DNA of 64,000 nt from Leucoraja ocellata. Taxonomy: Eukaryota. Where the stretch lies: the NCBI GenBank assembly GCA_036785375.1, contig JAWMAR010000009.1, forward strand, positions 16,554,001 through 16,618,000, written 5' to 3'. Of the stretch, positions 1-62,889 are shown in pieces (position 1 is the stretch's first letter; each line of letters starts with the position of its first letter). Position numbers and translations under genes: made by a program. The notes beneath the pieces were generated by a model, which saw only the letters and a program-made list of their open reading frames with translations, was not told the origin of the DNA and did not search any database.

Positions 1-1255
1 AGATGCTGGGTTTTTGTGTAAAACACAAAGTGCTGGAGTAACTTTTTTTTTGCAGCGGTCCAGGCAACATTTCTGGCGGCGTTTCGGGTCAGGAACCTTC
101 TTCAGTCTGACTCAAAGTCTGAAGACCCAAAATGCCGCCTATCCTCCAGAGATGCTGCCCGACTCACTGCGTTACTCCAGCGCTCTCTCGTTTACGCCTC
201 CCCCCCGAATCTAGTACCAGTCCATTCAATCTTAAACCCACGTATAGACCGTATAAATGTACAAACTGTCTGTGACAATAGAACACTTACGAACAATGAA
301 ACACTTAAGATAGACACAGAAATGCTGGAGTAACTCAGCGGGGGACAGGCAGCTTCTCTGGAGAGAAAGAATGGGTGACCCTTTCGGGTCGAGACCCATC
401 GTCAGAACACTTACTCCGGCTAATCAAGCGACTGATTACATTTTACAAACTTCTAAAGTTCATACAGACTTTGACCCCCGACTCCGTCAATGGCGGAACC
501 GGGTGAACGTGGAATTACCGAGTGCATGTGTCCCTCCTACAGTAGCTAGATGCGTCTGTCCCATTGCCAGGCAGAGCGTGGCTGAAAGATCATCGAACTA
601 ACACGTTAACCGTTTATCCCCAGACGACCCGCTGAATGTCGCCAGTATTCTCTGCTTTATGTTTCAGAATTCCAGCACCATGTGTGTGTGTATATATATA
701 TATACATACATAAAGAAAATAGAAATCAAACTGGAGTAACTCAGCGGGACAGGCAGCATCTCTGGAGAGAAGAAATGGGTGACGTTTCGGGTCGTCTGAA
801 TATAATATATATAAATATAAACTTTTATTTTACGTGGTATGAACGAATATTGATATATATTTTATATATAATATTCGTTTATAAACGGTTTTGTAACTAA
901 CGGCCCCTTACTTTAAAATTATCCTCGATCACAAGATATTCGCTGCCTCTGTAATCCCGGCACAGGTGTCAATATCATGCATTTCTCTCCCCCCGTCTAT
1001 AAACACATTTTCAGACTGATTTCTCGAGAAGATGACGTGAGAATCTAGAACAGGAATAAGCCACCACCTGCAGCGAGAACGGTTTTGTAAACAAGACTGG
1101 CAGGGGGGGGGGGGGGCGGTTTTGGAAGCCGTGCTATGGGGGAAGAGTCTCTGCAACTTCTGAAACCATCGTTCGACGTTCAAACAAAACTGCTCGACAT
1201 TTCAACTGGGTGGAACTGTCGCCGACTCGCCCCGCGCTACCATTAACCCCATGTT

Positions 1256-1441
1256 ACACAAAAAAGCTGGAGAAACCCTCAGCGGGTGCAGCAGCATCTA
1301 TGGAGCGAAGGAAATAGGCAACGTTTCGGGACGAAACGTTGCCTATTTCCTTCGCTCCATAGATGCTGCTGCACCCGCTGAGTTTCTCCAGCTTTTTTGT
1401 GTAACCTTCGATTCTCCAGCATCTGCAGGTCCCTCTTAAAC
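1256..1441. mobile_element. Young fold-back (inverted) Penelope-derived insertion in intron 1
   Basis: Near-perfect palindrome 1256-1401 centred on gtttcgggacgaaac. 17-bp TSD accattaaccccatgtt at 1239-1255 and 1442-1458. Confidence 0.85.
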
Positions 1442-2631
1442 ACCATTAACCCCATGTTGTCGCCGCCCGTCCTGCTTCTGGGAAGTGACTGCGCGCTGTA
1501 TTGGAATCAGTGCGAATTTCAAAGCCAAAATGTACACAAGGACCGTTTTCAATTAGGGGTTGTTAATGACCCCTAACCCCCCCCCCCCCCACCCCCACCC
1601 TTGGAAGGTGTGGAAACCCCCCTTTCTTGGCATTACTTGAAAGAGTGGGGTAGTTATTCCCAGAGTCCAAAACTTAATTAAAACTAGTTATTTTTTCAGC
1701 TGACTTTAGATCGGTAACAAGCGTAAATAAGTGGAAGATATAGGATTCTATGGAAATGTTTCTCAAACTTCCATCCAGATATTGCATCATATTATTGCAA
1801 GTTTGACGTGCTCTTCATCATGTTCCCCGCTAATTAAAGTCGAAGACACACAAAGGGCAGCAGATGCTGGAATCAATGGCAGAGAAACTCGGCGGGTCAG
1901 TCAGCATCTGTGGGGGGAATCACCTCCAGCGCTTTGTATTTAACTGAAGTGAATTGTGACTCCCACGCTAACCAAGGGGCAACTTGCAGGGTCAAAGACG
2001 TTATGGTCTTGGAGTAAAGGGTGGGAACGTTGGACTTAGGGTCAGAGTCACAGGCGCGGAAAGAGGCCATTCGGCCCAACTAGCCGACGCCGGGCAACAT
2101 GCCCCATCTACACCAGTCTAACCTGCCGGCGCTTTAACCCATATATGTCCACATGTCTCTTGAACACAACGATAGAACCTGCCTCAACTACCTGAAAGAA
2201 GGGACTCGACCTGAAACGTCACCCACCCCTTCCCTCCAGAGACGCTGCCTGTCCAGCTGAGTTACTCCAGCACTTTGTGGCTATCTTCGGTGTAAACCAG
2301 CTTCTGCAGTTCCTTCCTACACATGCCTCAACCACCTCCTCTGAAGGGTTTCGGCCCGAAACGTCGCCTATTTCCTTCGCTCCATAGATGCTGCTGCACC
2401 CGCTGAGTTTCTCCAGCAATTTTGTGTACCCACCTACTCTGGCATTCGTCCCATGTACCCACCAGCCTTTGTATGCAAAAAAAGTTACCCATCAGGTTCC
2501 TATTAAACCTCCCCCCCCCCCCCCCCTTCACCTTAAACCTATGTATTCTGGATTTGTCGACGTGGGTTTAACCGTCCTGCTACACATGATACACACGTTA
2601 ATAGAAACAGTGGTGTCAATATTCTTGTGGG

Positions 2632-2717
2632 GGGAGAGAGAGAGATAATTGTTATATATATATCTCAATTGTTATATACATAGATCTCAATTCTATCTCT
2701 CTGTCTCTCTCTCTCTC

Positions 2718-2767
<50 letters not shown>

Positions 2768-2860
2768 TATATATATAACAATTCTACCTCTCTCTCCCCA
2801 AAACAACATTATCACCACTGTTTATAATACATATATATATATATATATATATACATATAT
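2632..2860. repeat. (TA)n/(GA)n/(TC)n compound microsatellite
   Basis: Seen directly. Confidence 0.9.
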
Positions 2861-3555
2861 ACACTGTATAAGGAAGGGTGTGTGTTTAACACTCTGTAAA
2901 AATACCACCCGGAAACGAGTAAGTGGTGGCTCCAAATGTTCTGACGGGTGTGGTATCAGATCAAACTTTACGTGACTGATTTTTCTTTTCGTTGCCCCAA
3001 ATGTTCTTATCCACAAGATAATTCAGAAAGAAACAAAAAAAGATCTCTATAATGTTAAAAAAAAAAGCGGAAGAGATTTTCAAGTTTGAAAACCGCACGA
3101 ACGCAGTGTAATTCTGAAACCCTTGGGGTTGGTTTATAATCAGTCCCCGTTTAACCTCAGCCGTTTTCAAAAGTAATTGGAAACATTACAGTTAAATAAA
3201 CGCGGGGACAAGGCAGGATTCGGTTAGCGTTCGCCCTGAAATCCAATGTCTTGAAACCCCTTCTCTTGCAAATGTGCTTCCTCACGTTGCAAAAGCCAGT
3301 TGGCGTTTCTAGTTTATATCAGCAATATTCTGCATTTTGCCTACTGTTTATATCCGAACGTTCTGCAATAATTTGGGCATTTAATACATTATTTCTCTGA
3401 AACCGTTGCAATTGGAGCCGAAACGAGATGGGAGAGATGAAAATGGGTTTCGACCCGAAACAAGTCACCCATCCCTTCTCTCCAGAGATGCTGCCCGAGT
3501 TACTCCAGCGTTTTTGTGTCTATCTTGGGGGAAATGGGAGAAACCAGTCACTCAC

Positions 3556-4082
3556 CTGCCCTGTTTGGTGATTATCATCTCCGTTTGATGCTTGTGAAAT
3601 TTAGACCAGAGTTGGTAGTTGCATAGCATAATCTGCACCTTCCCCGATGCTTGCAACCCCGGCACCGCGCAGAGTGAAGTCCGTTGATAGGTGTGAGGGT
3701 AGGGGGCAGAGAAGGAGTCGGTGCCTGCCGCGTAGACTTCAGTTCCTGGGCTCGGGTAGCTGGGCACTCCAGCGACTTGCGGTCTATTGCCGGGGTAGGG
3801 GCAATTAGACAAGGCCGGTGTCAAATACCTGCTGGCATTGCCCACGGTGATCCCGGCGGCCGAGATGTGCTGGCTTGGGTAAGGGAGAGGGACAGAGTCC
3901 GGGGAACCCTGGCACTGGTCTCCCATTAAGTAGAACCTATCCTGCATCCCATATCTCAGGTCCTGGTAGTCTTGCATCGACTTATTCCTCTCGGCGTCTT
4001 TGTTGAAATTCTCGCTGCTCTCTGGCTGGTTCAACATAGCGATGGGAAAGTTGGGGCCGGAGTCTGGACTCGTTCCTCCCAT
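3556..4082 (-). CDS. TBX21: T-box transcription factor, Tbr1 subfamily, most likely TBX21/T-bet; coding exon 1 (N-terminus and start of the T-box)
   Basis: ATG at 4082 (MGGTSPD...). The frame ends ...PGLQASGKVQIMLCNYQLWSKFHKHQTEMIITKQGR, followed by a phase-2 donor AG|GTGAGT at 3556/3555, the conserved first-intron position. PGLQxxGK and LWSKF resemble T-bet more than EOMES/TBR1 (VYLCNRPLWLKFH). No later exon was found in 1-3555. Confidence 0.88.
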
Positions 4083-4199
4083 GGACTGTCCAGAGAGGGA
4101 GGGGGTAGAAAATGTAAACTTAAAAAAAAAAAAAAAATCACCCACCCCCCCACACACACACACACACACACAATGGGAAACGATCAAAGTTTGTTGGAG

Positions 4200-4420
4200 C
4201 GACCACAAGGTGTGATAATGTCCATCAGGGGTACTCAAAGACTCGTTGTCTCAATCTCCCAGGTACCAGCTCCTATTAAAGATCACACTCCTCCTGCCTC
4301 GGGGTCTTTTCTACACGATTGGTGTAGCTCTGGTGTAGTCATAGCAGTATTTGTCTCATTGGTTTAGGCTCACGCCGTATGTACAGACGCGGCAGATTTA
4401 CACAAACCACGCCCAGCGCG
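4200..4420 (-). promoter_or_regulatory. Putative proximal promoter / 5' UTR region of the T-box gene
   Basis: Unique CpG-containing sequence just 5' of the ATG. Minus-strand CCAAT at 4318-4322 and 4358-4362, SP/KLF-like CCACGCCC near 4407, ACCACA (4202-4207) next to AGGTGTGA (4208-4215). The TSS cannot be placed from sequence. Confidence 0.45.
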
Positions 4421-4692
4421 AAGTAGAGAGGAAACCTCGAATGAATTTCGATTAAAACAAAAAAACAGGTCTGAACAAGGGTCTCGACCCGAAACGTCAC
4501 CCATTCCCTCTCTCCGGAGATACTGCCGAACCCGCTGAGTTACTCCAGTCTACTGGAATTTAAAAAAAACGTTTGGACATGAATTTAAGGCTAATCCTAT
4601 TTTTATTTCTGTAAAACGTTACCCTGCAAATGGCTTAATGAAAAAGGAAAAAAGAGGTTCTGATTATTGCGAGGAAAGGTGTATGAAGGAAC

Positions 4693-4884
4693 CGAAGATA
4701 GACACAAAAAGCTGGAGTAACTCAGCGGGTCAGGCAGCATCTCTGGGGAGAAGGGGTAGGTGTTGGTTTGGGGGCGAGAGCCTTCTTCAGACTTCAGAAG
4801 TGGCTCGACCCGAAACGTCACCCATTCATTCTCTCCAGAGATGCTGCCTGTCCCGCTGAGTTACTCCAGCATTTTTGTGTCTAT
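4693..4884. mobile_element. Fold-back Penelope-derived repeat about 0.6 kb upstream of the ATG
   Basis: Inverted arms atagacacaaaaagctggagtaactc...gagttactccagcatttttgtgtctat around a broken hammerhead core. Confidence 0.75.
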
Positions 4885-5167
4885 GGCCGACTCGTGTATC
4901 AAAACTGGAATTGACTCTGAATATCTCAAGTCAGATCACCCCATGATGGCAATCCCAACCCAGGATGTTCGTGTTATCGGTTTTACTTCAACCGGGCATG
5001 AATTATGTAGACTCTGAAAGGTCCTTTCTCGACACGCCGTCTATCTAGAAATGCTGCTTGACTCGCCGAATTACTCCAGCACTTTGTGTCTTTTTTTGTC
5101 GTTGTAAACCAGCATCCGCAGTTCCTCGTGTTTCATTAACATTCCCCAGTCGGCCTGGTCTGACTGT

Positions 5168-5349
5168 ACACAAAAATGCTGGAGAAACTCAGCGGGTGCA
5201 GCAGCATCTATGGAGCGAAGGAAATAGGCAACGTTTCGTTGCCTATTTCCTTCGCTCCATAGATGCTGCTGCACCCGCTGAGTTTCTCCAGCATTTTTGT
5301 GTACCTTCGATTTTCCAGCATCTGCAGTTCCTTGCTTTAGCGCTTTAGT
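5168..5349. mobile_element. Fold-back Penelope-derived insertion
   Basis: Inverted arms meet at acgtttcgtt (~5231). TSD tctgactgt at 5159-5167 and 5350-5358. Confidence 0.8.
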
Positions 5350-5841
5350 TCTGACTGTTCTTAGACGTTGAAATGCTTAAATTCTACTTGCAATTGTAAA
5401 TGCCACAATAACTTCCATACAATGGAAATATCAATTCTGGATTTTAATTGACACCAAAAAAAAAAAATCAGAAGTGAATTTGGAAAATATCAACTTCCAC
5501 CTGTGTGTGACCCGGTCGGTTGGGATAATGTTAAGCAGCAACATACAGAACATCACCGGCTGAGTTTGCAGAAATACAGATGAATTTACAAGCAGAGAGC
5601 CATCGTTAACAAGAGACAGAACGGTCGCCATAATAGGGGTGGGGTTGGAAATAAATCATCGACTAAAAAGTGGATGAATATTTTTTTTTTTTAAAGAGCA
5701 GATACTGAACATGTGAATTAAAACAAGAAATGCTGGAAACACACAGCATCTACGGAAAGATAGACTGTTACTCTGCTTAAGGTGGAAAAAGTGATGCAGG
5801 TTATACTAATTAACAATGTAGATCAGCTACTGGTTATGAGA

Positions 5842-6035
5842 TGGAGACGCAAGGAACTGCAGATGCTGGAATCTTGAGCAGAACGCAAAGTGTCGGAGGA
5901 ACTCAGCAGGTCAGGCAGCATCTGCGGGGGGAGTTGACAGGCGATGTTTTGGGTCAGGGCCCCTTCTCCCGACCCCAGGAGTGTCTTCCATTCCCTCCAC
6001 AGATGCTGCCTGACCTGCTGAGTTCCTCCAGCTCT
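5842..6035. mobile_element. Older fold-back Penelope-derived repeat
   Basis: ggaggaactcagcaggtcaggcagcatctg ... cagatgctgcctgacctgctgagttcctcc. Confidence 0.65.
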
Positions 6036-7096
6036 CTTGAACTTGGAGATGTTTTGGATCAACGAATTGCTCATGAAACCCCCATTCACATTTGCCACCA
6101 ACATGTCGATTGGCAATCTGTATGTTGTAAGGAACACACTTGTAGATAGTAGTACTAAATCTCATTAATGATTAAGATGAAGGAAATGAGCAATATTGGT
6201 ATATAGTGCAGCACCCCACATCAAATACGTGTTAACCATTGGACAAAAATGTGTTCGAATTCGAAATGAAGACTTTTCTAAAAAAATCGACGACATCTTA
6301 TAGTTTGAGTCTGAAGAAGGATGTCGACCCGAAACATCACCCATTCCTTCTCTCTCGGGATGCTGCCTGTCCCGCTGAGTTACCCCAGCATTTTGTGTCT
6401 ATCTGCCGGGTTAGTGTCGAACATTTTTCGTTATACTTTGTATCATGAGTGTGGGGAGAATTTGTTTTCTTCTCCTCCCCACCGCTGAAATAAAGGTGAA
6501 GGCGGTATCTGTAATGAAATTTACAGGAAGATTGTTGCCCCCCCCCCCCCCCCCCACACACACACATCCTTGTGCGTGTTACAGGCAGCCTTGAGTTCCA
6601 GGCGATCGCTGGGATTGTGTACTCAGATCTAGACAGTGTGGCCTCATCGCTCACGTTAAACCATTAGCCTCTTGATTAAGTGCGAATCGCGAATCATCAA
6701 GCTGAGACATGTCCCCATTGTGGCAGACCTTTCCCAACCTGCACTCCACAAAGCAGCCAACTAGCGACACGTTAAAACTTCTCGCCCGAGACCGCCATAG
6801 CAATCACACGATGTCCACCACACTTTGCATACACGGCAGCATCTTCAAAGAGCCACTGAGATTGAGTTGCCTTTTACACTGATTACATTTTACGATTAAA
6901 CTGAACGGCTGCGGTCAAGAACGATTCCATATTTATGTCGCAGGTTGGTCTTTTTTTGACGTTTATTCCGACAGCAAAATAATTAAATATATTGCGGAGG
7001 AATTCTGAAAGTAAATTAAATCAATAAACAATAAATAAAAAGTTTACATATGCTGGGCACACTGAGTGTGGTGTTTGGGTCAGAATTATATACAAC

Positions 7097-7244
7097 NNNN
7101 NNNNNNNNNNNNNNNNNNNNNNNNNNNNNNNNNNNNNNNNNNNNNNNNNNNNNNNNNNNNNNNNNNNNNNNNNNNNNNNNNNNNNNNNNNNNNNNNNNNN
7201 NNNNNNNNNNNNNNNNNNNNNNNNNNNNNNNNNNNNNNNNNNNN
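7097..7244. other. N run (gap or hard-masked repeat); others at 10054-10269, 12349-12679, 12722-12944, 20849-21003, 21277-21476, 53600-53802
   Basis: Irregular lengths, mostly flanked by microsatellite or retroelement tails. Confidence 0.95.
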
Positions 7245-7629
7245 ACATATACATGTCTATTTGTGTGTATATATAAATACATGTATATATTTATATTTTA
7301 AATATGTATATATGTAAATATATATATGTGTATTTATATTGTAATATAAATATACTATATATATATATATATTTACATATATACATATACACACGCACAC
7401 TCACACATATTTATTTATTTTTGAGTGCGTGTTTGTATCTGTATAAGCATATTAATTTATTAAATGTACACTGTTGCACATTAATGAAATCCTTTCTTGT
7501 TCCCTCCAGTAGCTTTATTTTTCGTATGTAGGTGATCTAATTTGTTGATTTGAATATCTGTGGGGGTGATCAAAGAGAGGCATTTTAACGAGAAAAGCGG
7601 TCTTCTGTAAAGTCTGAAGAAGGATCAGA

Positions 7630-7657
7630 CTGAAGAAGGGTCTCGACCCGAAACGTC
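7630..7657 (+). ncRNA. Minimal hammerhead ribozyme motif (Penelope-associated)
   Basis: CTGAAGA-A-GGGTCTCGACCC-GAAA-CGTC. Confidence 0.6.
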
Positions 7658-8324
7658 ACCTATTTCCTTCGCTCCATAGATTCTGCCTCACCCGCCGAGT
7701 TGCTCCAGCATTTTTTTTATCTACCTTCTGTAAACCCTGATAACATTCCAGGTTTCCAGTCAAATCCTCTCAGCAATGTCAGATCATCCTCGTTATTGAT
7801 AGTTTATCTTGCAGAAATCTTCACCTCTTTACTTGCACAAAACCCCGCACTCATTCACAGATTGAATGTTTTGGAAGATTCTGTAAGATTTCTCCAGCGC
7901 TCTCCCACACGTAATAACCATCCGATCAGTGTTTTACTTGGTCTCTGTCGAGAAAATGTCTCAGCCTAGTTAATCCCCACACCTAGGTATATTTAATGCC
8001 GCGGGTTGGTTTATTTAATCTAAACGAACTGTTGCATTCATACATTTAGTTGTCCGAAGCAGAACTAAAATCAAACCGCAAAATAAGAAAATAAAGGATA
8101 ACTTGGCATAATTGGGCGTTTGTGGGGGATTCTGATAGTGGGTACAACTAGAGAGATGAGATGAAACAGCCGCGTTATTTTATTTTTAAATCTCACCCCA
8201 TCCAGATTCTTTCTCGGTGGGAAATAAATGTCATGAAGTGTCATGGGTTAAATGTGTAGGAGGGAACTGTAGATGCTGGTTTACACCGAAGAGAGACACA
8301 AAATGCTGGAGTAACTTCTTCAGA

Positions 8325-8360
8325 GGGTCTGAAGAAAGGTCCCGACCTGAAACGTCACCA
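8325..8360 (+). ncRNA. Minimal hammerhead ribozyme motif with a compensatory stem II pair and short stem I
   Basis: GGGT-CTGAAGA-A-AGGT-CCCG-ACCT-GAAA-CGTC-ACCA. An A-T pair replaces the usual G-C in stem II; GGT/ACC forms stem I. Confidence 0.6.
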
Positions 8361-8679
8361 ATTCCTTCTCTCCAGAGATACTGTCTGAACCGCTGAGTTA
8401 CTCCAGCATTTTGTGTCTATCATGGGCTAAATGCAGCTCTCTTCTTAAAAGCGTCGATCTGCCGTCGCGGTAGAGACATGTCTGAACGTCAGACTGTTTA
8501 GAAAATACAAATTGTTGACTGAATATTACTGTTATTCTTCATACAAGTGACCATATATATCAGGCTCCAATTCGCCTTGATCATCGTTACTTTTTTTTGC
8601 ATTTGTTCATTTGTTCTGGATCTCTCTCTATATCTCGTTATCCTTTTCCCTGACTCTCCTTCTGAAGCATTGGAACATA

Positions 8680-9298
8680 GAGACAGATAGGTGCAGGAGT
8701 GGGCCATTCGGCCCTTCGAGCCAGCACCACCATTCAATGTGATCATGGCTGATCATCTAAAATCAGTGCCCCATTCCTGCTTTCTCCCCATATCTCTTGA
8801 TTACCTTAGCCCTAAGAGCTAAATCTTACTCTCTCTTGCAAACAAATCCAGTGAATTGGCCTCCACCGCCTTCTGTGGCAGAGAATTCCACAGATTCACA
8901 ACTCTCTGGGTGAAGATGTTTTTCCTCATCTCAGTTCTAATTGGCCTACCACTTATTCTTAAACTGTGACTCCTGGTTCTGGACTCCCCCAACATCGGGA
9001 ACATTTTTCCTGCATCTAGCCTGTCCAATCCTTTAAGAATTTTATATGTTTCTATACCAGGTATCCTCTCATTCTTCTAAGTTCCAGTGAATACAAGCCC
9101 AGTCAACACATTCTTTCATCGTATGTCAGTCCAGCCATCCGAGGAATTAACCTGGTGAAACTATGCTGCACTCCCTCAATAGCAATAATATACTTCCTCA
9201 AATTGGGTGACCAAAATTGCACACCATACTCCAGGTGCGGTCTCACCAGGGCCCCGTACAACTACAGTAGGACCTCCTTGCTTCTAAACTCAAATCCT
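8680..9298 (-). mobile_element. CR1/HER1-like LINE 3' fragment
   Basis: LDRLDAGKMFPMLGESRTRSHSLRI...FTQRVVNLWNSLPQ and the CR1 3' tail. Confidence 0.88.
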
Positions 9299-11099: not shown

Positions 11100-11398
11100 T
11101 AGGACTTTAGAGATAAAACGTGGAAATAGGCCACTCGGCCCAACGAATCCATGCCGACCAGCAATCATTCCATACACTCGCACTATTCTACACCGTAGGG
11201 ACAATTTACAGAAGCCAATTAGCCTGCGACCCCGTATGTCTTTCGAGTGTGGGAAGAAACCAGAGCACCCGGAGAAAACCCACGCGGTCACAGGAAGAAC
11301 GTACAGACTCTGTACATACAGCACCCATAATCAGGATCTAACTCCAGTCTCTGGCACTGTAAGGCAGCAACTCTACCGCTGCTCCACTGTGCTGCCCT
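11100..11398 (-). mobile_element. HE1-like tRNA-derived V-SINE
   Basis: tRNA-like head, V-domain-like core (CGCGTGGGTTTTCTCCGGGTGCTC...TTCCCACA), and a 3' end shared with the CR1 tail (gggccgaagggcctgtttcc). Confidence 0.85.
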
Positions 11399-15642: not shown

Positions 15643-15671
15643 TCTGCGCCAGCAGAGCTGAAAGATGCTTA

Positions 15672-18190: not shown

Positions 18191-18202
18191 ATTTGCCTGT
18201 AT

Positions 18203-20789: not shown

Positions 20790-20835
<46 letters not shown>

Positions 20836-50699: not shown

Positions 50700-51060
50700 C
50701 CACTTCTACAAAGAGGAGAATAGACAAGGAAACCTCAGGGATGCCATAGTTAAGGAGATATTCAGGAAAGGACAAAAAATAATCAGTGTGGATTCTGTCT
50801 ATCTATACACACAAGGGATGTGATCTTCACATTGTGGCAACACAAAGAATACGGGGACCAATACTGCCTACTATGGCCTCTTTACTAAGCCTTTGACTCC
50901 ATGAATCAGGAGGATCCTGGAACCATCCCCATCCTTACACCTCCCAAATTCATCTACACACTGAAATTCACTGTAATTTTATGTGTGTTTCATGATGGCA
51001 TGAAGGCCATGATCCTAAACAATGGATCTGCAACAATGTCAAGACCAATGTCGAACTGGG
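50700..51060 (+). mobile_element. Highly degenerate RTE-clade reverse transcriptase remnant
   Basis: Residual motifs DVIF, TKAFDS-like (tttactaagcctttgactcc), PPKFI and FHDGMKA. Confidence 0.55.
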
Positions 51061-51722: not shown

Positions 51723-51860
51723 GAAAATTCAAGACGCGAAAAGGGACGAAAATACAGGACGTGAAAAGTAACGAGAATTCCGGGCGCAAAAAGCAATCAA
51801 GATGCGAAAAGCGACGAATAATCAAGACGCTAAAGGCGACGAAAATTCAAGATGCAAACT
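51723..51860 (+). repeat. Degenerate CpG-rich minisatellite (~24-25 bp unit)
   Basis: Approximate unit gaaaattcaagacgcgaaaagcgac, about 5-6 copies. Confidence 0.7.
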
Positions 51861-54800
51861 TTCTCAATCTCAATCAAAGAAAGTGGTTGAATGCCAGTTT
51901 GATTTATCCTGAAATCACTCTCTGTCTGTACAGCATGGTAGCCCTCAGGGTTGCAGGACTTTGATGGATTTATTTTTGCACCTGCTCACTCACAAACATA
52001 ATAGCACAATAAGACAATAAGACATACAAACAGAATTAGGCCATTCAGCCCTTCGAGTCTACTACGACATTCAAACACAGGCAATCTATTGTTCCCTCTG
52101 AACCCCATTCTCCTGACTTCTCCCCGTAACCTTTATCGCACTTCCTATTTTGACATGGGAGCCGTATGACTAAATACAAGGAATTCCCAGGCGTTTCCTT
52201 GTCCCATGATGACAAACCTCTTCTCTTCTCATCACCCTTCGCCCAATGGTCCAGGTGAAGCTGCCATTTTTTCCAGGTCCACAGCAATTTGTTCACCCTT
52301 CCTGCTGGTCTTGTGTTTTGCAGTCAGTCTTCAAAATTTGGTCTATTTTATACTGAGGAAGTTGCAAAGCATCTGCATTTAGCCTGCGGGAGAATCCGAT
52401 AAGTGCCGAGTCTTACCTGGATAAATGCAATGATTAATTCTGTGCGGAACTTCAAGCAAACTCTAGTGAACACCCAGGGCAATGTTTTGATGCAGTTACT
52501 GTAGTAGGCCAACCCCAACCAAAATATATTTTCCTCACACTTTCTCCTTTGAGAGAATTGTATTGGGAGCTTACTAAGGATCAATGAGAGAAAATTAAGC
52601 TATTAATATCTAATAATAGCTCTTAATATGTTGAGATTTGTGAGATAAATGCTAACCTTCAGTACCACTCTGCTAACCCATGGCTGATCGCAGTCATGTT
52701 TTGTTTCCTAACCTCACAGACCAGTGGTGTAATGATATGACAGTAGCTACATACAGAGAGAACAGTGACAATGAGGAATTAGTCTATGCCCTGGAATCTT
52801 GGCTGCAGTTTCATAAGACTTCTTTGCATCATCTGGAGTCAACAGATGTGCAGATGGATTAAACAGATTGAGCCTGGGATGTGAAATGTGTTTTTTTAAT
52901 ATATGGTGATGGATTGTGGCTTGTGTGTTACACTGGGCCAAAAATAGAGACTTCCCGCCTCAGCTGTATCAACTTCCCCTGCTGCAGAAAACCGTGCTAC
53001 CAAACAGGAAATAAGAAGCAACCTCTGAGTGCCAATTAACACTTCTATTCTAAACATTTTACACAGATGAGGCTTGAGCTGTGTGAGGGAAATCTGTGGC
53101 GGAATCCCAGTGAGTGGAAGACTATGAACAAGAGGCATTAGACGATGAAGCTGATTGTGAATGGCAATAGCTGGCACAGTGCACTAGATGGACAAGGAGG
53201 TGAATAGTGAAGGGTCTTCCATCGGAAACATTCACTGAATGTCCTTCCACAGATGCTGCCTGACCTGATGAGCTTTTCCAGAATTTCAGATTTTGTTTCA
53301 GATTTTCCGTGTCTGCAGTTTTGATTATTTTCATAAAATTATATTGACATTTGCAGAGTAAAGGTGGTTCATGATTCTTGTTTATGCAGAGACGGAGGGA
53401 GGAGATAGCCATCCGGAAAACCTTTACATCCATCCACTTTTTCTATCTATCTGTCTGTCTGTCTATCTATCTGTCTGAAGAAGGGTCTTACACTAGCACC
53501 TAAAACGTCACCCATTCTTTCTCTCCAGAGATGCTGCCTGTCCCGCTGAGTTACTACAGCATTTTGTGTCTATTTTCAGTTTAAACCAGCATCTGCAGTN
53601 NNNNNNNNNNNNNNNNNNNNNNNNNNNNNNNNNNNNNNNNNNNNNNNNNNNNNNNNNNNNNNNNNNNNNNNNNNNNNNNNNNNNNNNNNNNNNNNNNNNN
53701 NNNNNNNNNNNNNNNNNNNNNNNNNNNNNNNNNNNNNNNNNNNNNNNNNNNNNNNNNNNNNNNNNNNNNNNNNNNNNNNNNNNNNNNNNNNNNNNNNNNN
53801 NNACTCAGCAGGACAGACAGCATCTCTGGAGGGAAGGAATGGGTGACGTTTCGGGTCGATTCCCTTCTTTAGTTTGGTTTAGTTTATTGTCTCGCAAACC
53901 AAGGTACAGTGAAAAGCTTTTCATCAGAACTTTGTCAGTTAACTCTGACCTGAAACGTTAACCCTGTTTCTCTTTCCACAGATGATGCCTGACTTGCTGA
54001 GTCTTTCCTGCATTTCCTGATTTTACTACAAATGATGGTGTGAGTTGGGCTGACATTTTTATTTCTCGGCTTAACTTCTTTCTACACTCATTGGCAAGTT
54101 GCTGCCTTGCTCGTGACCCAGATCCCAGTCAATATTTCAAAATCTTGGATATCCCCAAAGAACAAATTAAGGACTTTTCACACAAAGTCACTCCATTGTA
54201 ACTTTGATTTTTACCTTTATTTCATTCCCAACACCCATTCCGTGTAAATTATACAGGGAGCTATTGCTTTCATCTCTCTACAAACCCCGGCTTTATTCAA
54301 ATCAGTAACAAAGCTAATTGTAGATGTAAGAGGACATTTGGCCCAATGGCACCACATAGTCCAACATCAAATAATCCACTGTGCTTCAAATGATCTAAAG
54401 TTTCATCATTCACTGGGCATTTTAAAGAATTACATTAGTAAAAGCCTGAGAGGAGCTTACCTTTTACTGGTTACTATCCCCAGTCTAATGAACTCTTCAG
54501 GAGTGAGGTGCTGGACACCACAGATAGACCTGGAAACGAGCTGAGAAGAATTGATCATTTGGTACAAAAGATCAATATTTTCTCTGCCGCTGGAGAGCGG
54601 TAGCACGTCAACATGGCGAGTTATAGAGTGATGCAGCGTGGAAACAGACCCTTCGGCCCAACTTGCCCACACCAGCCAACATGTCCCAGCTACATTAGTC
54701 CCACCTGCCCGTGTTTGGTCCATATCCCTCCAAACCTGTCCTATCCATGTGCCTCTCTGGCTGTTTCTTAAATGTTGGGATAGTCCCTGCCTCAACTGCC

Positions 54801-55832
54801 TCCTCTGGCAGCTCGTTCCATACACCCACCACCCTTTGTGTGAAAAAGTCACCCCTTAGATTACTATTAAATCTTTTCACCTTCACCTTAAACCTATGTC
54901 CTCTGGTCCTCAATATGCCTACTCTGGGCAAAAGTCATGAAGGTAAAGGCGGAGCTGGGCAACAAGTTGTCCAGCCACACGTAGCATAAGACCAGGCACA
55001 TTTTCCCAAGCTGAGCCTTTTGTAGTCTTAATCACGTTTGCTCGAGTAAACTGATGCAAAGTAGCAGTTGGTCAACTGATGCAAGTGAAAATCCATGCAG
55101 CTCCCAACATCAGGTTCATGTGATTTTGGTGTGTTTCATAATTGTTAACTGGGTGAGGTCAGCCTAAATAGGAACGACCTAAACTTCCCTTCTGGGCTGT
55201 ACACATTTGCTCACTTTGGACTTTAGAGATACAGCGCGGAAACAGGCTCTTTGGACTACTGAGACCGCCACGACCACTGATCATCCCATACACTAGCACT
55301 ATCCTACACACTAAGGATATTTTACATTTTTACAGAAGCCAATTAACCAACAAACCTGTACGTCTTTGGCCTGTGGGAAGAAACTGGAGCAGCCGGAGAA
55401 AACTCACACGGACACAGGGAGAACGTGCAAACTCTGTACAGACAGCACCAGTAGCCAGGATGGAACCTAGGTCTCTGGCGCTGTGAGGCAGCAACTCTAC
55501 CGCTGTGCTACTGTGCTGCCCTCCTCTTGAAGAGCAGTGTCGTTCTCATGAATCCCACAGAAAAAGATATATTTTGCCTTGAAGTAAACTTATGGAATCT
55601 TCTGGTCTTGAGTCCTTTTCCCCCCACTGTGACCCGACACTATTTAACTGAAACTGGACTCATGCACTGAAGAAGTGGTTTTCTGATTTGTAGCACGAGT
55701 CTCTGGCTTGTGTGAAGACCAGTTTAAAAGTGGAATTTGCAAGAAAAGAGTAGGACTTCAGTGAATGAGATGGAAGAAGAAATGAATGACTGTGTGGCCT
55801 CCCCAATCCAAGCTTGGACCGAGAAAGTAAGA

Positions 55833-56572
55833 GACAATACAACACAATACAATAATACTTTATTAGCCAAATATACTTTACATACCAGGAGTTTTATTTG
55901 CCAAGTCAGTCATACAAATAAAAAGCAACAGAACACACAAAATACATTTTAATGTAAACATCCACCACAGTGACTCCTCCACAATCCTCACTGTGATGGA
56001 AGGCAAACTAAAATGTTCAATCTCTTCCCTTCTTTGTCCTCCCGTAGTCGGGGGCCTCGAGCCTTCCGTTCACGGGACGATCTTGACTCCCATAGCCGGC
56101 GGCGGGCACTCCGCGTCGGGGCGATCAGCTCCCGCATCGGGGGGGATGTCAGCTCCACCGCTCCGGGCGTTCGACCCCGAGACGGGGCTTGTCGAACCTC
56201 TGCGTCGTTGCAGCCTCCCGACTCAGCCTCTACCGAGACTGCGAGCTCTCAATGTAGATTCCGCAGGCCGCGGTCGAAGCGATCCCAGGCGAGGGATCGG
56301 CTCCGATGTAAGTCCACGCCCCGCCGTGGGGCTCAAAGTCAGTCCGAGGAGCGGCCGGAGATCCAACCCAAAAATTAATCGCATCTCCAGCAGGATATGA
56401 GATTGAAAAAAAGTCTCCTCCGACCTCCTCCCCCTTCCCCCTTCCCCCCGCATAAAACAAACCAGAGAACATTTACACAGACTTTTAAAATGCACTAAAA
56501 ATAACAAAAAAAAGTCAAAAAAACAGACAGACTGTTGGCAGCGCTGCCAATCGTGCGGCGCCCCTAGTGGTT
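55833..56572 (-). mobile_element. GC-rich non-autonomous retroelement with an (ATTGT)n tail
   Basis: Architecture shared with 51150-51512. The ggctaataaag tail resembles LINE tails at 10270 and 60541. Confidence 0.6.
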
Positions 56573-57342
56573 AAATGTGTCAGTAAAATGAAGCACGGGA
56601 TCTTGAAGAACCAGTTACATGATTAGGATGGGAAATACATGGGCAAGTTGGCAGAAAGAAGAGAAATAAATGTATTAAGCGGGTAATGAAAATACAAGTT
56701 AATTAATACTGAGAGAAAATATCCAGAGCCCAGAGCAGTTCCTAAACTGCTGAATGGAAAAATGGGAACAGACCTTCTGAGGCTGATGAAGCATAATAAA
56801 AAAAAGCAACCTGGTAACTTTGACGGAAAGGTTAATTTGCTTAGAAATATAGAGACAAATCCTGAACAATAACAGAACATGATGGAAATACTCAGCAGGT
56901 CAGGCTGCATCTGTGGGAAAAGAAACCTTATAATGGTTTCAAAGGCGGTCAAGGTTATCCTAGATGATCCACAGAATTATTCAAGGTTACAGTTCCAGAG
57001 ACGTATAACAGGGAAAGTCTTACATTTTTAATGTGAACTGAGACCAAATCTTTGAGCTAATGGTAAAAGCTGGTTTACAAGACGTTAGTAGATGCTGATG
57101 TAAAATCAAAATGCCATTTAATCTTTTATAAAATGCCACAGTCTAAAATTATAGGATATAGGTTTAAGAGTGGAATTATTTAAAAGGGACCTAAGGGATA
57201 ATGTATTCACACAGACGATAATGTGTATATGGAACGAGTTGCCAGAAAAAATACTAGAGACAGATACTATTGTGAAATTTAATGCAGTTTGGTAGGTACT
57301 TGAGATAAAGGTTTGGAGAGATACATGACGCTAGCTTAGTTA

Positions 57343-59093
57343 TGGGGCTGTCACACTGTACGAGCTAATTCAAGAGTTCTCCCAAGTTTCCCCTAATTCG
57401 AACTCGGAGAATTACGGTAATAGCCGCTCGTAGGTACTCGAGGCTCCCGTGGACATTTTTCAACATGTTGAAAAATCTTCACGAGTCTTCCCGAGTACCT
57501 GCCGTTAGCGTTACGAGCCGCTAAGAGACGTCCCAAGGAACTTCCGGTGGCGCCATGGAGCACTAAGGCGCGGCATTGAGCTCCTCTCCCGTAAAAATTG
57601 CAAAAAAGCCGTTTTAAAGTCAGTACCGATTTAAAAAAAACTCACCGGAGCTGCTTAGTGTCGTGTAAAGGTGACATCATCAGAAGGTGACGTGAGAATT
57701 GGGGAGCTTAACGGTAAAAATCGGGAGTTTTAAATGAGCAAAGAAAAAAGTTCAAGGGCACCTAAGAAAAACACTATTAGTCTTCAGCTCGAGAAAGTAT
57801 TGGATACTCTGCAAACGACAGAACAAGGCTCAGAAGAAGAAGAATCCAAGGGCCTCTGCTTGAAATGGCTACAAAAGGAGACAAGAAGGAGAAAGAGGTA
57901 AAGCAAATGCTTTTAGATATGACTGCTACAATCAATATTACACTGGAAAAGATGCAGAGTATGGAGTCTCATATGGAGAGTAATAAGCAGAGTATGGAGA
58001 CTAATATGGAGAGAATTTCTCAAAAAATTGAAAATACTTGCAGTGAATTAAAAGAACTGAAGAAGCAATATAAGGAATTTGATTTTAAAAAAAACTAAAG
58101 TCATAGTGTGTTAGAATCGAAAATGACTATAACAAGATGTGAAGGATGATATCGTAAAACTGGATGAAATAATGGAAGAGATGGAGAATGAGATAAAAGA
58201 GATGGTCACGGAAATAATGAGTTTGAAAAAATCACAGAAAACTGAAGAGGAAAAATTTGGAAGAATGACTGACAAATGTCTGGACTTAGAGGCAAGATCG
58301 CGAAGACAAAATCTGAGGATTCTTGGAGTGGAAGAAGGACGAGAGGGACATGAATCTCAAGCATGTACTTTTGTTACTGATTTACTCAAAGATGTCTTTG
58401 AACTGTCGGAAGAACCAAGAATAGACGTCGCTCACCGAGTTGGGCGTGTTGCAATAGGAACAAATTATTCAAGACAGATAATTGTGAAATTCCGTGATAT
58501 CTCTTCAGTGGAATTTATATTGAGAAAGATTACCCATGGGAAGAAGCTGACATACCGTGGGGATAATATTCCAATTTTTCCGTGATTACCCACCTGAGGT
58601 CGTCCCGAGAATGAAATTGTTCACACCGGCAAGACACACTCTGAAGGATGTCCCCGGAGATAGATATGGGGTCGTTTTTCCTGGGAGAATGAAGGTGTCT
58701 TATAACGGCACTGAACACTCATTTACAGATCCCGGAAAAGCTTTTAAGTATGCAGAGGATATCGTAAAGAAAATATCGGGGGAAGCTGTCGACAAGGAAG
58801 AAGATTGAACTTTTTAATTCTTATGATAAGAGTTTTGAACTGGTTAAAATGGCGGAGCTTTCCAGACAATTACAAAGCTTATCTCTCTGGAATGTGTTTT
58901 TGAGAGTGCTGGCCATATTTAACCTTGAACGAAAAGCTCAAAGTTTAACCCCTTGGTACCTGCTTGTATGGTAGTTAACCTTTTAGAGCTCCAACATACC
59001 CGCCACGTACATTCTACGCGCTTACCACGAGTTTGATTTTTTTTTTAAATTCGGGAGAGCTCTTGGGTGAACTCGTACAGTGGGACAACCCCA
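57343..59093. mobile_element. PIF/Harbinger-type MITE interrupted by an L1-like insert
   Basis: TIRs tggggctgtcacac / gtgggacaacccca. TTA TSD at 57340-57342 and 59094-59096. The MITE body breaks at ~57536 and resumes at ~58985. Confidence 0.85.
57537..58984 (+). mobile_element. L1-clade LINE 5' portion: 5' UTR and frameshifted ORF1 (coiled coil, RRM, CTD); ORF2 essentially absent
   Basis: Starts GGAACTTCCGGTGGCGCCATGG. ORF1 pieces span 57734-58808 and include DLEARSRRQNLRILGVEEG, IDVAHRVG, RQIIVKF, FRDYPPEV and YGVVFPGRMKV. Possible ISWNV endonuclease start remnant at ~58880. Confidence 0.85.
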
Positions 59094-61500
59094 TTAGGCA
59101 ATTTGGTTGGACTGAAGGGCCTATTTCATGCAGTATGGATCTTTGACTTTGCAACTTTAGTTGCACCCCAGGTTTGGGCCTGACGCAAAGCAAAATACAG
59201 TAATTAAACTAATCTTGCTGCAATGTCCAGGTAGGATAGGAAATGTACTCCTTTAGAGCAGTGGCAACAATAAAGGAATTCATAATTTGATGGTGAGGTC
59301 CAAGTTTAAACAAGGCCACAAAATGCAATTGCTACAATTACGATTTCATGCATGTGGCATCCAATGTAAAATATGTAGATGTTTCTGGTCCCAAGTCAGA
59401 AGAAACCAGAGAAGATGACTGCTTTTCTTTCTTACTGATTCTGGTCTGAAAATTATATTTGTGCACATTTACAAGCCATATAATCTCAACATCCAAACAG
59501 TTAACTTAATCTGTAATGTTAAATTGAAACACGGTAGTTTAGTTTACCGCACGGAAACAGGCCCTTCGGCCCACCAAGTCCGCGCTGACCAGTGATCACC
59601 GCACACTAACAGTAACCTACACACACTAGGGACAATTTACATTTTTACTGAAGCCAATTAACATACAAACCTACATATCTTTGGAGTGTGGGAGGAAACC
59701 GGAGCACCCAGAGAAAGCCCATGCAGGTCAGGGGAAAACGTACAAACTCCATACTGACAAGCACCTGTGGTCAGGATCGAACCTGGGTCTCTGGTGACTC
59801 GACCGCTGTGCCCCATGGTAGGTTTCTGTTATTCAGTCTGTAATGCCATTTACCCTCCTCTCTCTGAAGATGTCTGAAATATTCTCTGGAGATATTGGAC
59901 GTGTGGCTTCTTCTGTTAATAACTTTATATGACTGATATTTTAACTTGATCCAATTATAAATCACTTATTTCAAATTATGTAATGCAGAGGAGTAAACTG
60001 AGTCACCATGGATTATCACGTTATTTGCGAATTATAGAATTGTGATCAAAATGCTGTATTTATACCACAATAATAGCACCCAGATCGTGGTGAATCTGTG
60101 GAATTCATTGCCACAGACAGCTGTGGAGGCCGTCATTGAGTATTTTTAAGGCAGAAGTTGACAGATTCTTGATTAATGCAGGTGTCAAGGGTTATAGGGA
60201 GAAGGCAGGAGAATGGGGTTGAGTTGGAGAGTTAGATCAGAAATGGATTATTAAACTGAGCAGTAAGTCTGTTTTTCAGACCAGTTTTGGCACGGCACAG
60301 TGGCGCAGCAGTACAGTTGCTGCCTTACAGCACCAGAGGCCAAGATTCTGTGGGTTGAATGGAAGACAGATGAAATCTTCAAAGGTTCAAAGGTTCTTTA
60401 TTAGCCACATACACCAATTGGTGTAGTGAAATGCTTATTGCCAATGCAGCACATAAAAAATTTTTTTTAAATTAAAAAAAAAAAAATCTTCTCCTACTTA
60501 CAGGCTTGGGATGAGCTCAGTAATGAATGAATGAATGAATAAGTTTATTGGCCAAGTATGTACACATACAAGGAATTTGCCTTGGTGCTCCGCTCGCAAG
60601 TAACAACACGACATACAGTAAACAATTAAGAATAAAACATAAAACATTAAGAATAAAATATCATAGTTTAAACATGTGAATGAAATAAAATACCAGAGCA
60701 AAAGGAGGCAACAGACTTTTGGTTATTGAGTAGAGCTACTGCTCGTGGAAAAACGTTGTTGTTATATCTGGCTGTGGCGGCTTTAACAGTCCGGAGTCGC
60801 CTTCCAGAGGGAAGTGCTCCGTAATGCACATGAGGTGTGATAGAAATCAGCAGCAGCCTGGAATGATGAAGTTAGTAAGCTGGCTGATACTGTGACTCCA
60901 CAAACAAAGTGGTCCAAAGCACATGCATTAGAATGCATTTAAAGCCTGAGAGGGGTATAGATCTCATCATGGGCTAACAAGTGTTGGTCCTTTCAGTAAT
61001 ATAGTTTCAAAGGAAATGGATTATTAAACTGAGCAATGTCTTTTTTTTAAGAGACCAGTTTTGGAGCGGCACGGTGGCGCAGCAGTAGAGTTGCTGCCTT
61101 GCAGCGCCAGAGACCCAGATTCAATCCTGACTACGGGTGCTGTCTGTACGGAGTTTGTACATTCTCCCGTTTTCTTCCGGTGCTCCAGTTTCCTCCCACA
61201 CTCCAAAGATATACGTAGGTGAAATCTACAAAATTGTAGAAAATTGTAAAATATAGTTAATTGTCCCTAGTGTGAAGGATAGTGAGAATGGACGTTGGCG
61301 CTGGTTGGCGCGGAAACGGTGGGATGAAGAGCCTGTTTCTACGCTGAAGTCTGAAGAAGGGTCTCGACCCAAAACGTCACCCATTCCTTCTCTCCAGAGA
61401 TGCCGCCTTACCCGCTAAGTTACTCCAGCATTTTGTGTCTACCGTTGATTTAAACCAGCATCTGCAGTTCTTTCTTACACACTGATTCTGTGCTGTATCT

Positions 61501-61639
61501 ACTTCTTCTTGCATCTGGCGTCCACAGCCTAAAGTTGCAGCACTACTTGTTCTATTTGATCTTATTTTATTGTGCACGCCGGGTTGATTGCATTCATCGA
61601 AACAGGGTGGACCACGTGAAGGTTGCAATCTTCCACCCC
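61501..61639 (-). mobile_element. Short non-autonomous retroelement with an HDV-like ribozyme head and an (AAG)n-like tail
   Basis: Flanked by near-identical direct repeats tgctgtatct (61491-61500) and cgctgtgtct (61640-61649). The 3' end reads ...GCAAGAAGAAGT on the minus strand. It lies in the 3' tail of a V-SINE. Confidence 0.75.
61586..61639 (-). ncRNA. Minimal HDV/CPEB3-like ribozyme fold (catalytic C position is T in this copy)
   Basis: Minus strand reads GGGGTGG-AA-GATTGCA-ACC-TTCACGT-GGT-CCACCCT-GTTTCGA-TGAA-TGCAATC. P1 is 7 bp with a G1.U wobble, P2 is 7 bp, P3 is 3 bp, and L3 is TTCACGT as in CPEB3. Confidence 0.8.
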
Positions 61640-62889
61640 CGCTGTGTCTCTAAAGCATAAAGTAAAGTGAGTCTGTGCAATTTTCTAAGTACAGTGGAGT
61701 TATCCCTGGTGTCGTGGCTAATATTTATCCAGATCACAGAAACAGAGATCTTTTTTTTTAAAATATTTTTATTTAGTAGAAGCAAATGTACAAGAGTAGA
61801 ACAAACGGCATATAAAATTATACAGTTATTGTACAGCTTCAATTTTGACTTTTTAGTTTTGTAGAAGAAAAGAAAAGAGAAAAAGAACAAGAAAGAGAAA
61901 AGGTGAGATGTGCAAAGATAGGACCCGTAGACCACCAAAGTAGTGTAGCCAAAGGAACACAAAAATGCTGGAGAAACTCAGCGGGTGCGAAGGAAATAGG
62001 CAACGTTTCGGGCCGAAACCCCTTCTTCAGACTGTAGCCAAACAGTGGGTAAAAGAAAGAGAGAAGAGAGAAATAGAAAAAAAAAAGAACAAAAAGAAAA
62101 AGAGAGAGAAAAGTGGTGATATACCTGCCTCTCGTCCCTCCCCACCCACCTCACCCAACCCATAATTGGATTTAAGTCCAAAGTTGTGTTGCGCCATGTA
62201 AGAAATCAGTAAAGGGTGGCCATGACTTGGAAAAATGATCTGGTTTTTCTGCCATGACAAGTCTAATATTTTCAAGATGTAGTGTCTTGGACATGTTTGT
62301 AATCTACATCTTAAGAGACAGAAATCTGTCGTCACTATGTTTATTGGCGGTAAAACAATGCTGCCTGTCTGTGAAAACCACATCAAGAACAAGAAGCAAG
62401 TCTCTGGGTTTATGGAAGACCATTTCCCACTGATATCTTGCATCATGTGAGCAAATAGGCAGCAGCACATCATTTTATTGTCTCCTGTGTAAAAGATCAC
62501 AAGTGCTTCTGCATTACTGCATTTCAAAAGACCAACATGTTTTAATTTGTTGTTTATGTTTGTTGAATGCCAAACGCCTGGGTTTATTTTCTTAATCTTG
62601 AGTGGTCTGTTTCAGCTTGGGGACTGAACCGTTCACCAGGGATGTTAATTAGCTCAAGTCTGCTGCTTGGCAATCATTGGTAATTGTTTTAAGAGTCGTT
62701 CATTCAATTCTAAAACGAAAACCATTCAGGATTAATGAGTATGCCCACAATATGCTCCGGTTTTAATGACCTCTTCATTGAAATATTCATTTGCCACAGA
62801 TTTAAGAATGGCTTCACCATCCCAAACCACATGAAGACACAAAAAGAGCTGGAATGTACCGCAGACTGCTGCAAAGTCTCCGATCTCCT

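Follow-up and report, generated by a model that had tools for sequence, protein, structure and literature searches.

The stretch of the Leucoraja ocellata genome analysed here, 64,000 nt of contig JAWMAR010000009.1 (the window, numbered from its first base), is crowded with short hammerhead-like motifs, and it raises the question of whether these are working ribozymes able to cut host transcripts or the remains of a mobile element that carried such a ribozyme. A preliminary description of the sequence had read them as a dense array of minimal type I hammerhead ribozymes (min-HHRs) associated with Penelope-like elements (PLEs), some of which could act on host RNA. We consider it very likely that the motifs belong to a repeat corresponding to the 3'-terminal 100–135 nt of an elasmobranch PLE, i.e. 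its pseudo-long terminal repeat (pLTR) with an optional tail of ~35 nt, and that its copies are 5'-truncated pieces inserted by reverse transcriptase (RT) and GIY-YIG endonuclease which have since decayed neutrally. Judging from predicted folds and mismatch counts, the genomic copies are probably not working ribozymes.

The repeat family and its hammerhead core

Searching the window by nhmmer, with a profile seeded from 20 of its own copies, returned 67 matches at E ≤ 0.1, of which 62 reach E ≤ 1e-4; when reversed, the window gave no match. These 62 copies (34 plus, 28 minus) occupy 5,395 bases, or 8.6% of the non-N window, and constitute its largest direct-repeat family, dispersed in units of ~100 or ~135 nt at a local density of about one copy per kb. 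All 19 sites singled out in the preliminary description turned out to be copies of this one repeat, located where it had placed them (minus-strand sites were given there by their low coordinate; the nucleotide C3 lies at 105, 16095, 21212, 25552, 38477 and 62030). The term array did not hold, as none of the 19 rows reported by Tandem Repeats Finder for the window is an array of this unit.

In the coordinates of a reference sequence computed from the window copies (ref), the hammerhead spans ref 3–34 and consists of a 2-bp stem I, CTGAAGA, an extra A, stem II GGGT/ACCC with a 4-nt loop, GAAA and the palindrome ACGT, with the predicted cut after the C at ref 32. Next come a pyrimidine tract, an ATG (ref 54), a small hairpin (ref 68–83) and the optional tail, and the 3' ends of copies are bimodal (ref ~92–104 and ~122–137). 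The copies fall into three sequence groups, A (n = 34), B (n = 12) and C (n = 16), with mean identities to their own consensus of 92, 95 and 86%, respectively, and the hammerhead core is identical in the three consensuses.

Downstream of the hammerhead, the pyrimidine tract and a YAG located 0 or 2 nt before the conserved ATG are kept in all three groups (ref 33–56; e.g. window 5247–5336, 5988–6032 and 22873–22896), and the frame from this ATG continues to the end of the tail without a stop in B copies (e.g. 5247, 39684) and in one C copy (5974), with stops in A. The tract, YAG and ATG may constitute a splice acceptor and the start of an open reading frame (ORF), since the pLTRs of other PLEs include first codons. 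An 8-bp complement links the repeat body (ref 52–59) to the tail (ref ~110–117), and the hairpin at ref 68–83 has a loop that varies between groups, 91% of its cells paired and no double-sided changes; both are candidate RT recognition structures.

The RNAmotif-type search that had been suggested as a check was run on the window with a descriptor requiring CTGANGA, an optional extra nucleotide, stem II of at least 3 bp, GAAA, paired 15.2/16.2 and T-H. It found eight complete cores (Table 1), where windows resampled 200 times under a first-order Markov model contained 0.025 on average and never more than 1. Because all eight descend from one repeat, this excess reflects amplification and not eight independent ribozymes. 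The six cores previously called intact all pass, as do two of the supposed variants (22290 and 62030), and the variation in stem II noted earlier for 8329 and 62030 was confirmed. The other 11 variants carry core-breaking changes, such as G8>C at 4471, C3>G at 16789, G12>A at 61351, G12>T at 23685 and G16.2>A at 6311, 16095 and 25552. Stem I is weaker than the 2–3 bp claimed for most copies; of the six cores called intact, 7630, 17197 and 38477 lack it and 22841 has a single pair. It reaches at least 2 bp in only three of the eight complete cores (8329, 45010 and 62030, the last with one wobble); it measures 2 bp in the consensus, and 62.5% of stem I cells are paired across copies.

The min-HHRs of PLEs are marked by an additional nucleotide that separates position 9 from 10.1, a G10.1-C11.1 pair, palindromic positions 15.2/16.2 and location in the pLTR (Cervera & de la Pena 2014, PMC4209133; here and below, statements taken from this paper, from PMC8557442, PMC3846280 and PMC7229834 and from the preprint bioRxiv 10.64898/2026.07.22.740005 refer to the parts of these sources that were available). 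In the window, an extra A lies between 9 and 10.1 in seven of the eight descriptor matches, the 10.1–11.1 column holds 15 G-C, four G-U and one A-U pairs with two copies unpaired, and all eight complete cores have the palindrome ACGU without a helix III loop, and are thus dimer-competent. These four marks, together with the insertion anatomy and an unrelated PLE that has the same core at the same place, bear out the identification of the motif as a Penelope-associated minimal type I hammerhead. A covariance-model check, also proposed earlier, did not recover it, with no hammerhead family among the 54 Rfam matches in the window at E ≤ 10, which is not surprising for motifs that lack helix III. 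The matches to Rfam microRNA families correspond to inverted pairs and microsatellites, and all are under gathering scores.

Insertion anatomy and the probable link to a Penelope-like element

Insertions of Neptune PLEs contain an inverted 5'-truncated copy, a 30–40 bp tail on one end, palindromic junctions and 8–10 bp duplications (Craig et al. 2021, PMC8557442; Arkhipova et al. 2013, PMC3846280). Of 49 insertion units in the window, 13 are flanked by direct repeats of at least 8 nt (0.46 expected from mismatched flanks) and 10 by direct repeats of at least 9 nt (0.15 expected). Copies also pair in a characteristic way, since 13 of the 15 adjacent pairs are head-to-head, one is head-to-tail, with both cores damaged, and one is tail-to-tail (binomial p = 9e-7). 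Exactly one arm carries the ~35-nt tail in 9 of the 13 head-to-head pairs and both arms in none, and five pairs (23–181, 4690–4884, 8251–8421, 15965–16171 and 23911–24086) are centred at or a few bases from a TCAG-W-CTGA palindrome at the hammerhead 5' arm.

Several inverted pairs would form long near-perfect RNA hairpins, the source of the spurious microRNA matches, and the pair at 1256–1442 folds into one of ~70 bp (−144 kcal/mol, z −22); such hairpins are possible substrates for editing or small-RNA production. The copies at 22290 and 22841 occupy the same base of two ~85% similar fragments resembling long interspersed elements (LINEs), 551 nt apart (22080–22390 and 22630–23060), and they may owe this shared position either to a local duplication of old date or to preferential targeting of a site with microhomology at the junction. 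Seven assembly gaps, 1,476 N in total, interrupt the window (7097–7244, 10054–10269, 12349–12679, 12722–12944, 20849–21003, 21277–21476 and 53600–53802). Two of them adjoin repeat copies, so that the ends of these copies and the possible tail-to-tail pair at 53473–53872 are uncertain.

At 13333–13676, where the repeat had been reported attached to a GIY-YIG C-terminus, the broken coding end of a PLE endonuclease is followed by a pyrimidine-rich 3' untranslated region (UTR) and, from ref 36, by the downstream part of the repeat (Table 1). The attachment is thus real, but the whole hammerhead is gone, leaving a 39-nt gap in comparison with copy 17197. A 31-residue piece of 13333–13508 matches 19 proteins at E ≤ 0.001, and both frames of this segment align to endonuclease C-termini, at 55–84% for proteins P0122 and P0125. 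P0125 has a GIY-YIG match in Pfam (E = 0.002, below the curated cut-off) and a CxxxCxxC linker, while P0140, 44% identical to P0125, is a full RT and GIY-YIG protein whose GIY-YIG match also falls below the Pfam cut-off. A Cys-rich linker of the form CX2-5CxxC, a mark of the Neptune/Nematis type (PMC8557442, PMC3846280), is seen in P0125, P0140 and L001, an element described below. The parent probably belonged to the Neptune clade; this label rests on the relatives and not on the window, from which the linker region is missing. A word-index protein search with the 43-aa frame gave three candidates, none at E ≤ 10, and P0121, the top match of the endonuclease-piece search, was discarded as a spurious match to a repetitive protein.

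Another remnant of the PLE endonuclease end with its 3' UTR, this one inverted, lies at 36695–36660 (minus) and 36707–36799 (plus), without the downstream repeat. Four of the matched proteins (P0122, P0124, P0127 and P0132) are host gene models, for a G protein-coupled receptor, VKOR, a LAMP-like protein and ATP synthase c, with a PLE endonuclease C-terminus fused in, probably through mis-annotation or exonisation of the element in related genomes.

When the GTDB collection was searched with a degenerate core pattern, for which ~1.6 matches were expected by chance, the unrelated PLE alone was matched. This element, L001 (contig CBDDTI010000588.1, 601–1229, minus), has the core 87 nt 3' of the stop codon that closes an ORF for a GIY-YIG endonuclease (Pfam E = 4e-5, above cut-off; 45% identical to P0125). 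The window segment 13333–13508 also matches the end of this endonuclease. Its loop II differs from that of the window copies, its stem I has 4 bp with both innermost pairs swapped, ACGU is kept and the flanks have no similarity. The predicted fold gives its stem II a pairing probability of 0.99. L001 is the single outside element from which compensatory stem I changes are known. The contig, part of a metagenome-assembled genome (MAG), holds eukaryote-type PLE DNA, most likely animal DNA binned into a bacterial MAG.

Ends of the copies, activity and competing explanations

The 5' ends of the copies are concentrated at the hammerhead 5' arm and not at the cut site, with 31 of 62 at ref 1–6, 0–4 nt ahead of the core, and two at ref 31–36, and no 3' end falls before ref 51. 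Among the 36 solo copies, 19 end at ref 1–6 in 93 nt of exposure and 13 at ref 7–50 in 1333 nt, a 20-fold rise in stop rate (p = 4e-15). Three of these 19 have pyrimidine-rich upstream DNA and might be longer, in which case the excess would remain. The boundary is real and not an edge of the reference, because the bases 5' of ref 1 look random in 22 solo copies. An origin of the boundary at a splice acceptor was rejected on the same grounds, as a shared upstream exon would be expected.

Homology and L001 show that the active parent carried a minimal type I hammerhead ~100 nt 3' of the endonuclease stop codon. Its RT-endonuclease would bind the parent transcript and nick the target, and reverse transcription would start internally on the RNA, at one of two sites separated by ~35 nt, which would account for the two classes of 3' ends; two internal RT start sites have been shown in vitro for the lizard PLE PAc (PMC11167929). 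The template is uncleaved RNA, because the copies run through the cut site. The cDNA would usually stop, or fold back on a short palindrome, at the hammerhead 5' arm and leave the solo or head-to-head pieces observed. By analogy with published PLE motifs, the ribozyme would have been selected in the parent and most likely cuts only as a dimer or with the element's protein. The dispersed copies would be passengers which, rare exceptions aside, do not cut host RNA.

Candidate causes of the 5' boundary are a transcript 5' end, the palindrome itself, a block to RT in the C/U-rich UTR and a non-autonomous master. The TCAGT at the boundary fits the initiator consensus YYANWYY. We tentatively suggest, as an account that may well prove wrong, that the 100/135-nt inserts are run-off, "strong-stop"-like cDNAs. 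The PLE transcript would start at the initiator-like TCAGT, 2–4 nt before the core, and the RT would prime at internal sites of the upstream pLTR and either run off the RNA 5' end or fold back on TCAG-W-CTGA. The hammerhead would then lie at the extreme 5' end of the mRNA, held off by pairing with the pyrimidine tract that follows it. Instead of processing tandem precursors, it would work as a switch, cutting away the capped leader ahead of the first ATG. If this were true, the high density of solo pLTRs would be either an abortive by-product or a self-sustaining family resembling short interspersed elements (SINEs). Literature searches, judged by titles and the openings of abstracts, brought up no paper that treats this elasmobranch family or copies whose 5' ends lie at the hammerhead, although unseen supplements, subscription papers or Repbase/Dfam may cover the family.

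In a variant compatible with a PLE origin, the short units would stem not from truncation of full-length elements but from master copies of their own, those of a non-autonomous, SINE-like derivative of the PLE that is transcribed from the hammerhead 5' arm and mobilised in trans. The very sharp 5' boundary, its initiator-like sequence and the presence of a clear upstream pLTR in only four of 62 copies (13610, 14870, 17194 and 25555) would fit such a unit. Nevertheless, longer copies with 3' UTR and endonuclease sequence have the same subfamily A sequence, the 5' ends are ragged over 6 nt, and pLTRs with preferred palindromic 5' ends have already been described (PMC3846280), so that we regard the derivative as possible but rather improbable.

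As regards activity, the hammerhead fold appears to be unfavoured in the predicted monomer structures of copies in their native context, in which the closing pair of stem II has a probability of at most 0.18 in all eight copies tested and the CUGANGA strand is 50–84% paired elsewhere, mostly with the pyrimidine tract behind the cut site. Predicted folds of monomers and homodimers did not yield the active hammerhead. In the 28 copies that span the motif, non-CpG mismatches to the reference amount to 10/254 in the core (3.9%) and 66/1247 in the flank (5.3%, p = 0.43), and mismatches at CpG sites to 6/28 and 10/54, respectively.

The suggestion that some dispersed copies work as ribozymes and cut host transcripts is thus very unlikely to be correct. 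Three cores keep a stem I of 2–3 bp, and a dimer in cis is conceivable for 7630 and 8329, on the same strand 699 nt apart, and for 22290 and 22841, but the cores decay neutrally, at the flank rate, the fold is unfavoured and no copy has a tandem partner. The five copies that lie sense in the visible part of TBX21 intron 1 are all damaged or truncated; cutting of host RNA is unsupported because none of them has a complete core. No other host coding exon was recognised by Pfam among the 294 of 534 candidate unique ORFs scanned. Dimers of such hammerhead variants reportedly do cleave, a result that a review (PMC6765202) attributes to Lunse et al. Published activities argue against host cutting: PLE min-HHRs showed no monomer cleavage and low dimer cleavage in the available part of PMC4209133, the hammerhead of an Anolis PLE cleaves only with the element's protein, is dispensable for insertion and gives no RNA-seq ends at the cut site (PMC11167929), and one of nine Xenopus retrozyme dimers cleaved, as far as the available part of the preprint goes (bioRxiv 10.64898/2026.07.22.740005).

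Several observations weigh against the assignment of the repeat to a PLE and against its neutral decay. When two polymorphic non-CpG flank sites are kept in the comparison, the core appears slightly more conserved than the flank (3.9% vs 7.5%, p = 0.043), a difference which reflects subfamily differences and not decay. Variable sites between subfamily consensuses, projected on subfamily A, number 0/11 in the core and 7/60 in the flank (p = 0.59), the whole 90 nt being conserved, and the stems of 30 window copies have no covariation above shuffles. The link to the endonuclease runs through a single copy without a hammerhead, and Pfam gave no match for the two short endonuclease frames of the window. 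A tblastn search of the window with P0140 returned nothing of the RT-coding body at E ≤ 1, so that an autonomous partner can only be surmised. Furthermore, because L001 was chosen by its core pattern, only its position and its stem I count as independent evidence.

Descent of the copies from a non-LTR retrozyme, in which tandem hammerhead units give circular RNA and cleavage-defined monomers that are re-inserted, has in its favour a report of such elements from one chondrichthyan and their relationship to PLE pLTRs (available part of bioRxiv 10.64898/2026.07.22.740005), but it is highly improbable, as the window contains no tandem array of the unit and its dispersed copies neither begin nor end at the cut site. 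Equally improbable is that the hammerhead look is a coincidence in one amplified repeat, a single ancestor counted many times: the eight cores are indeed not independent and have neither covariation nor an Rfam match to support them, but all four PLE min-HHR features outside the descriptor are present, the core lies where it would be expected 3' of the endonuclease stop, and the same core recurs at this place in an unrelated PLE, with compensatory stem I changes.

Host locus and comparison with known systems

The host gene at this locus was recognised from its first coding exon (Table 1), with a best match in the epaulette shark Hemiscyllium ocellatum (78%) and next matches at 39–42%. Apart from this T-box exon, only a LINE ORF2 tail exceeded the Pfam cut-off when six more of the longest ORFs were added to those scanned, so that the ~60 kb upstream of the exon contain no other Pfam-recognisable host exon in these ORFs; short or non-Pfam exons and non-coding transcripts may have escaped. 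The LINE ORF2 tail, found through a match to ALKBH8_N, lies at 48252–49028 (plus). Broken reading frames at 57781–58808 (plus), with a coiled coil followed by a transposase-22-like part and no Pfam match above cut-off, resemble a LINE-1-type ORF1, and many repeats of 200–300 nt in both orientations (e.g. 26707–27086, 38011–38343 and 42632–42876) are taken by us to be 3' fragments of CR1-like LINEs. The window also contains a tRNA gene at 43001–43072 (plus; Rfam 70.3 bits, anticodon GCA, Cys) and, at 51723–51858, a short tandem repeat with 25/68-nt periods that is unrelated to the PLE repeat.

Table 1 Features of the window, with positions counted from its first base.
Feature	Position	Strand	Remarks
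Broken C-terminal coding end, PLE GIY-YIG endonuclease	13333..13511	+	two frames, one in-frame stop; stop codon 13509-13511
Pyrimidine-rich 3' UTR/pLTR	13512..13676	+	joins repeat at ref 36; 39-nt hammerhead deleted at 13609/13610
Complete min-HHR core	7630..7657	+	stem I 0 bp; solo pLTR fragment 7627-7736; partial duplicate of core start at ~7611-7623
Complete core	8329..8356	+	stem I 3 bp; A-U replaces G10.1-C11.1; plus arm of inverted pair 8251-8421
Complete core (N7=U)	17197..17224	+	stem I 0 bp; ~30 nt of upstream pyrimidine-rich pLTR kept; 3'-truncated at 17243
Complete core (descriptor)	22290..22317	+	stem I 1 bp; within LINE-like fragment
Complete core	22841..22868	+	stem I 1 bp; tailed copy 22840-22963; 7-nt target duplication in LINE-like fragment
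Complete core	38450..38477	-	stem I 0 bp, with target DNA in place of its 5' arm; copy 38381-38477; 10-nt target duplication
Complete core	45010..45037	+	stem I 2 bp; of the subfamily A hammerheads the best preserved, with 1 change across ref 2-36; copy 45006-45102
Complete core, subfamily B	62002..62030	-	stem I 2 bp; GUU triplet; stems I and II both with U.G wobbles; copy 61957-62033; 10-nt target duplication
Head-to-head pair	23..181		both hammerheads damaged
Head-to-head pair, subfamily B	1256..1442		one tailed arm; 17-nt target duplication; TBX21 intron 1
Head-to-head pair	4690..4884		
Head-to-head pair	5168..5336		one tailed arm; 9-nt target duplication
Head-to-head pair, older subfamily C	5851..6032		one tailed arm
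Head-to-head pair	8251..8421		one tailed arm; fold-back centre at hammerhead 5' end
Head-to-head pair, old	9749..9931		
Head-to-head pair	15965..16171		one tailed arm; centre is TCAG-T-CTGA palindrome at hammerhead 5' end
Head-to-head pair, subfamily C	23911..24086		one tailed arm; 9-nt target duplication
Head-to-head pair without hammerhead	28344..28459		one tailed arm; 14-nt target duplication
Head-to-head pair, old	34518..34643		
Head-to-head pair, subfamily B	39606..39758		one tailed arm
Head-to-head pair	62890..63074		one tailed arm; 10-nt target duplication
Solo copies (the majority of 36)	span 307..61481	both	includes itemised solo copies
Damaged or truncated hammerheads, examples	406, 14870	-	
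Damaged or truncated hammerheads, examples	2196, 2343, 3438, 4469, 6308, 9311, 11525	+	
Damaged or truncated hammerheads, further examples	16786, 23683, 53473, 61347	+	
Damaged or truncated hammerheads, further examples	21211, 21568, 25555, 27500, 53872	-	
First coding exon of TBX21 (T-bet)	3556..4082	-	not part of the element; bases 1-3555 are its intron

The repeat extends a published class, the minimal hammerheads of PLEs, thousands of which occur in single genomes of fish, coelacanth and frog, to an elasmobranch family that is locally very dense. It also calls for caution in ribozyme scans, where such cores, being dead passengers, inflate the counts. At the same time, dozens of insertions record where the RT of a PLE starts (two sites ~35 nt apart) and where it stops (the hammerhead 5' arm and not the cut site), and these end statistics bear on the role of the hammerhead in the PLE cycle.

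With the PLE min-HHRs of PMC4209133, which number thousands per genome in coelacanth and Xenopus, the copies share CUGANGA, the extra nucleotide, G10.1-C11.1, GAAA, palindromic 15.2/16.2 without helix III and the pLTR site, as well as their occurrence mostly as single dispersed motifs from truncated PLEs with some close opposite-strand pairs. The main subfamily differs in its stems, with 4 bp in stem II and 2 bp in stem I as compared with 7–8 and 4–5 bp in Schistosoma (PMC4209133), and the available parts of that paper do not mention cartilaginous fish. Head-to-head pLTRs with palindromic junctions, a tail on one arm, target duplications of 8–10 bp, solo pLTRs and, in the relatives P0125, P0140 and L001, the Cys-rich linker are shared with Neptune PLEs. 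In contrast to these, nearly all copies here are 100–135 nt from the hammerhead 5' arm, and no full-length element lies in the window.

Poseidon PAc of Anolis carolinensis (Frangieh et al. 2024, PMC11167929) likewise has a pLTR hammerhead, two internal RT starts 3' of the hammerhead that define the tail, and an uncleaved template, but it belongs to another PLE clade and its ORF begins at stem II; among the window copies, the first ATG to be conserved lies 21 nt after the cut site. Furthermore, hammerhead activity has been shown for PAc, whereas that of the motif described here is putative. Non-LTR retrozymes (Cervera & de la Pena 2020, PMC7229834; Li et al., bioRxiv 10.64898/2026.07.22.740005) are also short non-coding repeats with type I hammerheads, a relation to PLE pLTRs and a presence in one chondrichthyan. 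They are tandem arrays of cleavage-defined units, whereas the copies in the window are dispersed or inverted and span the cut site.

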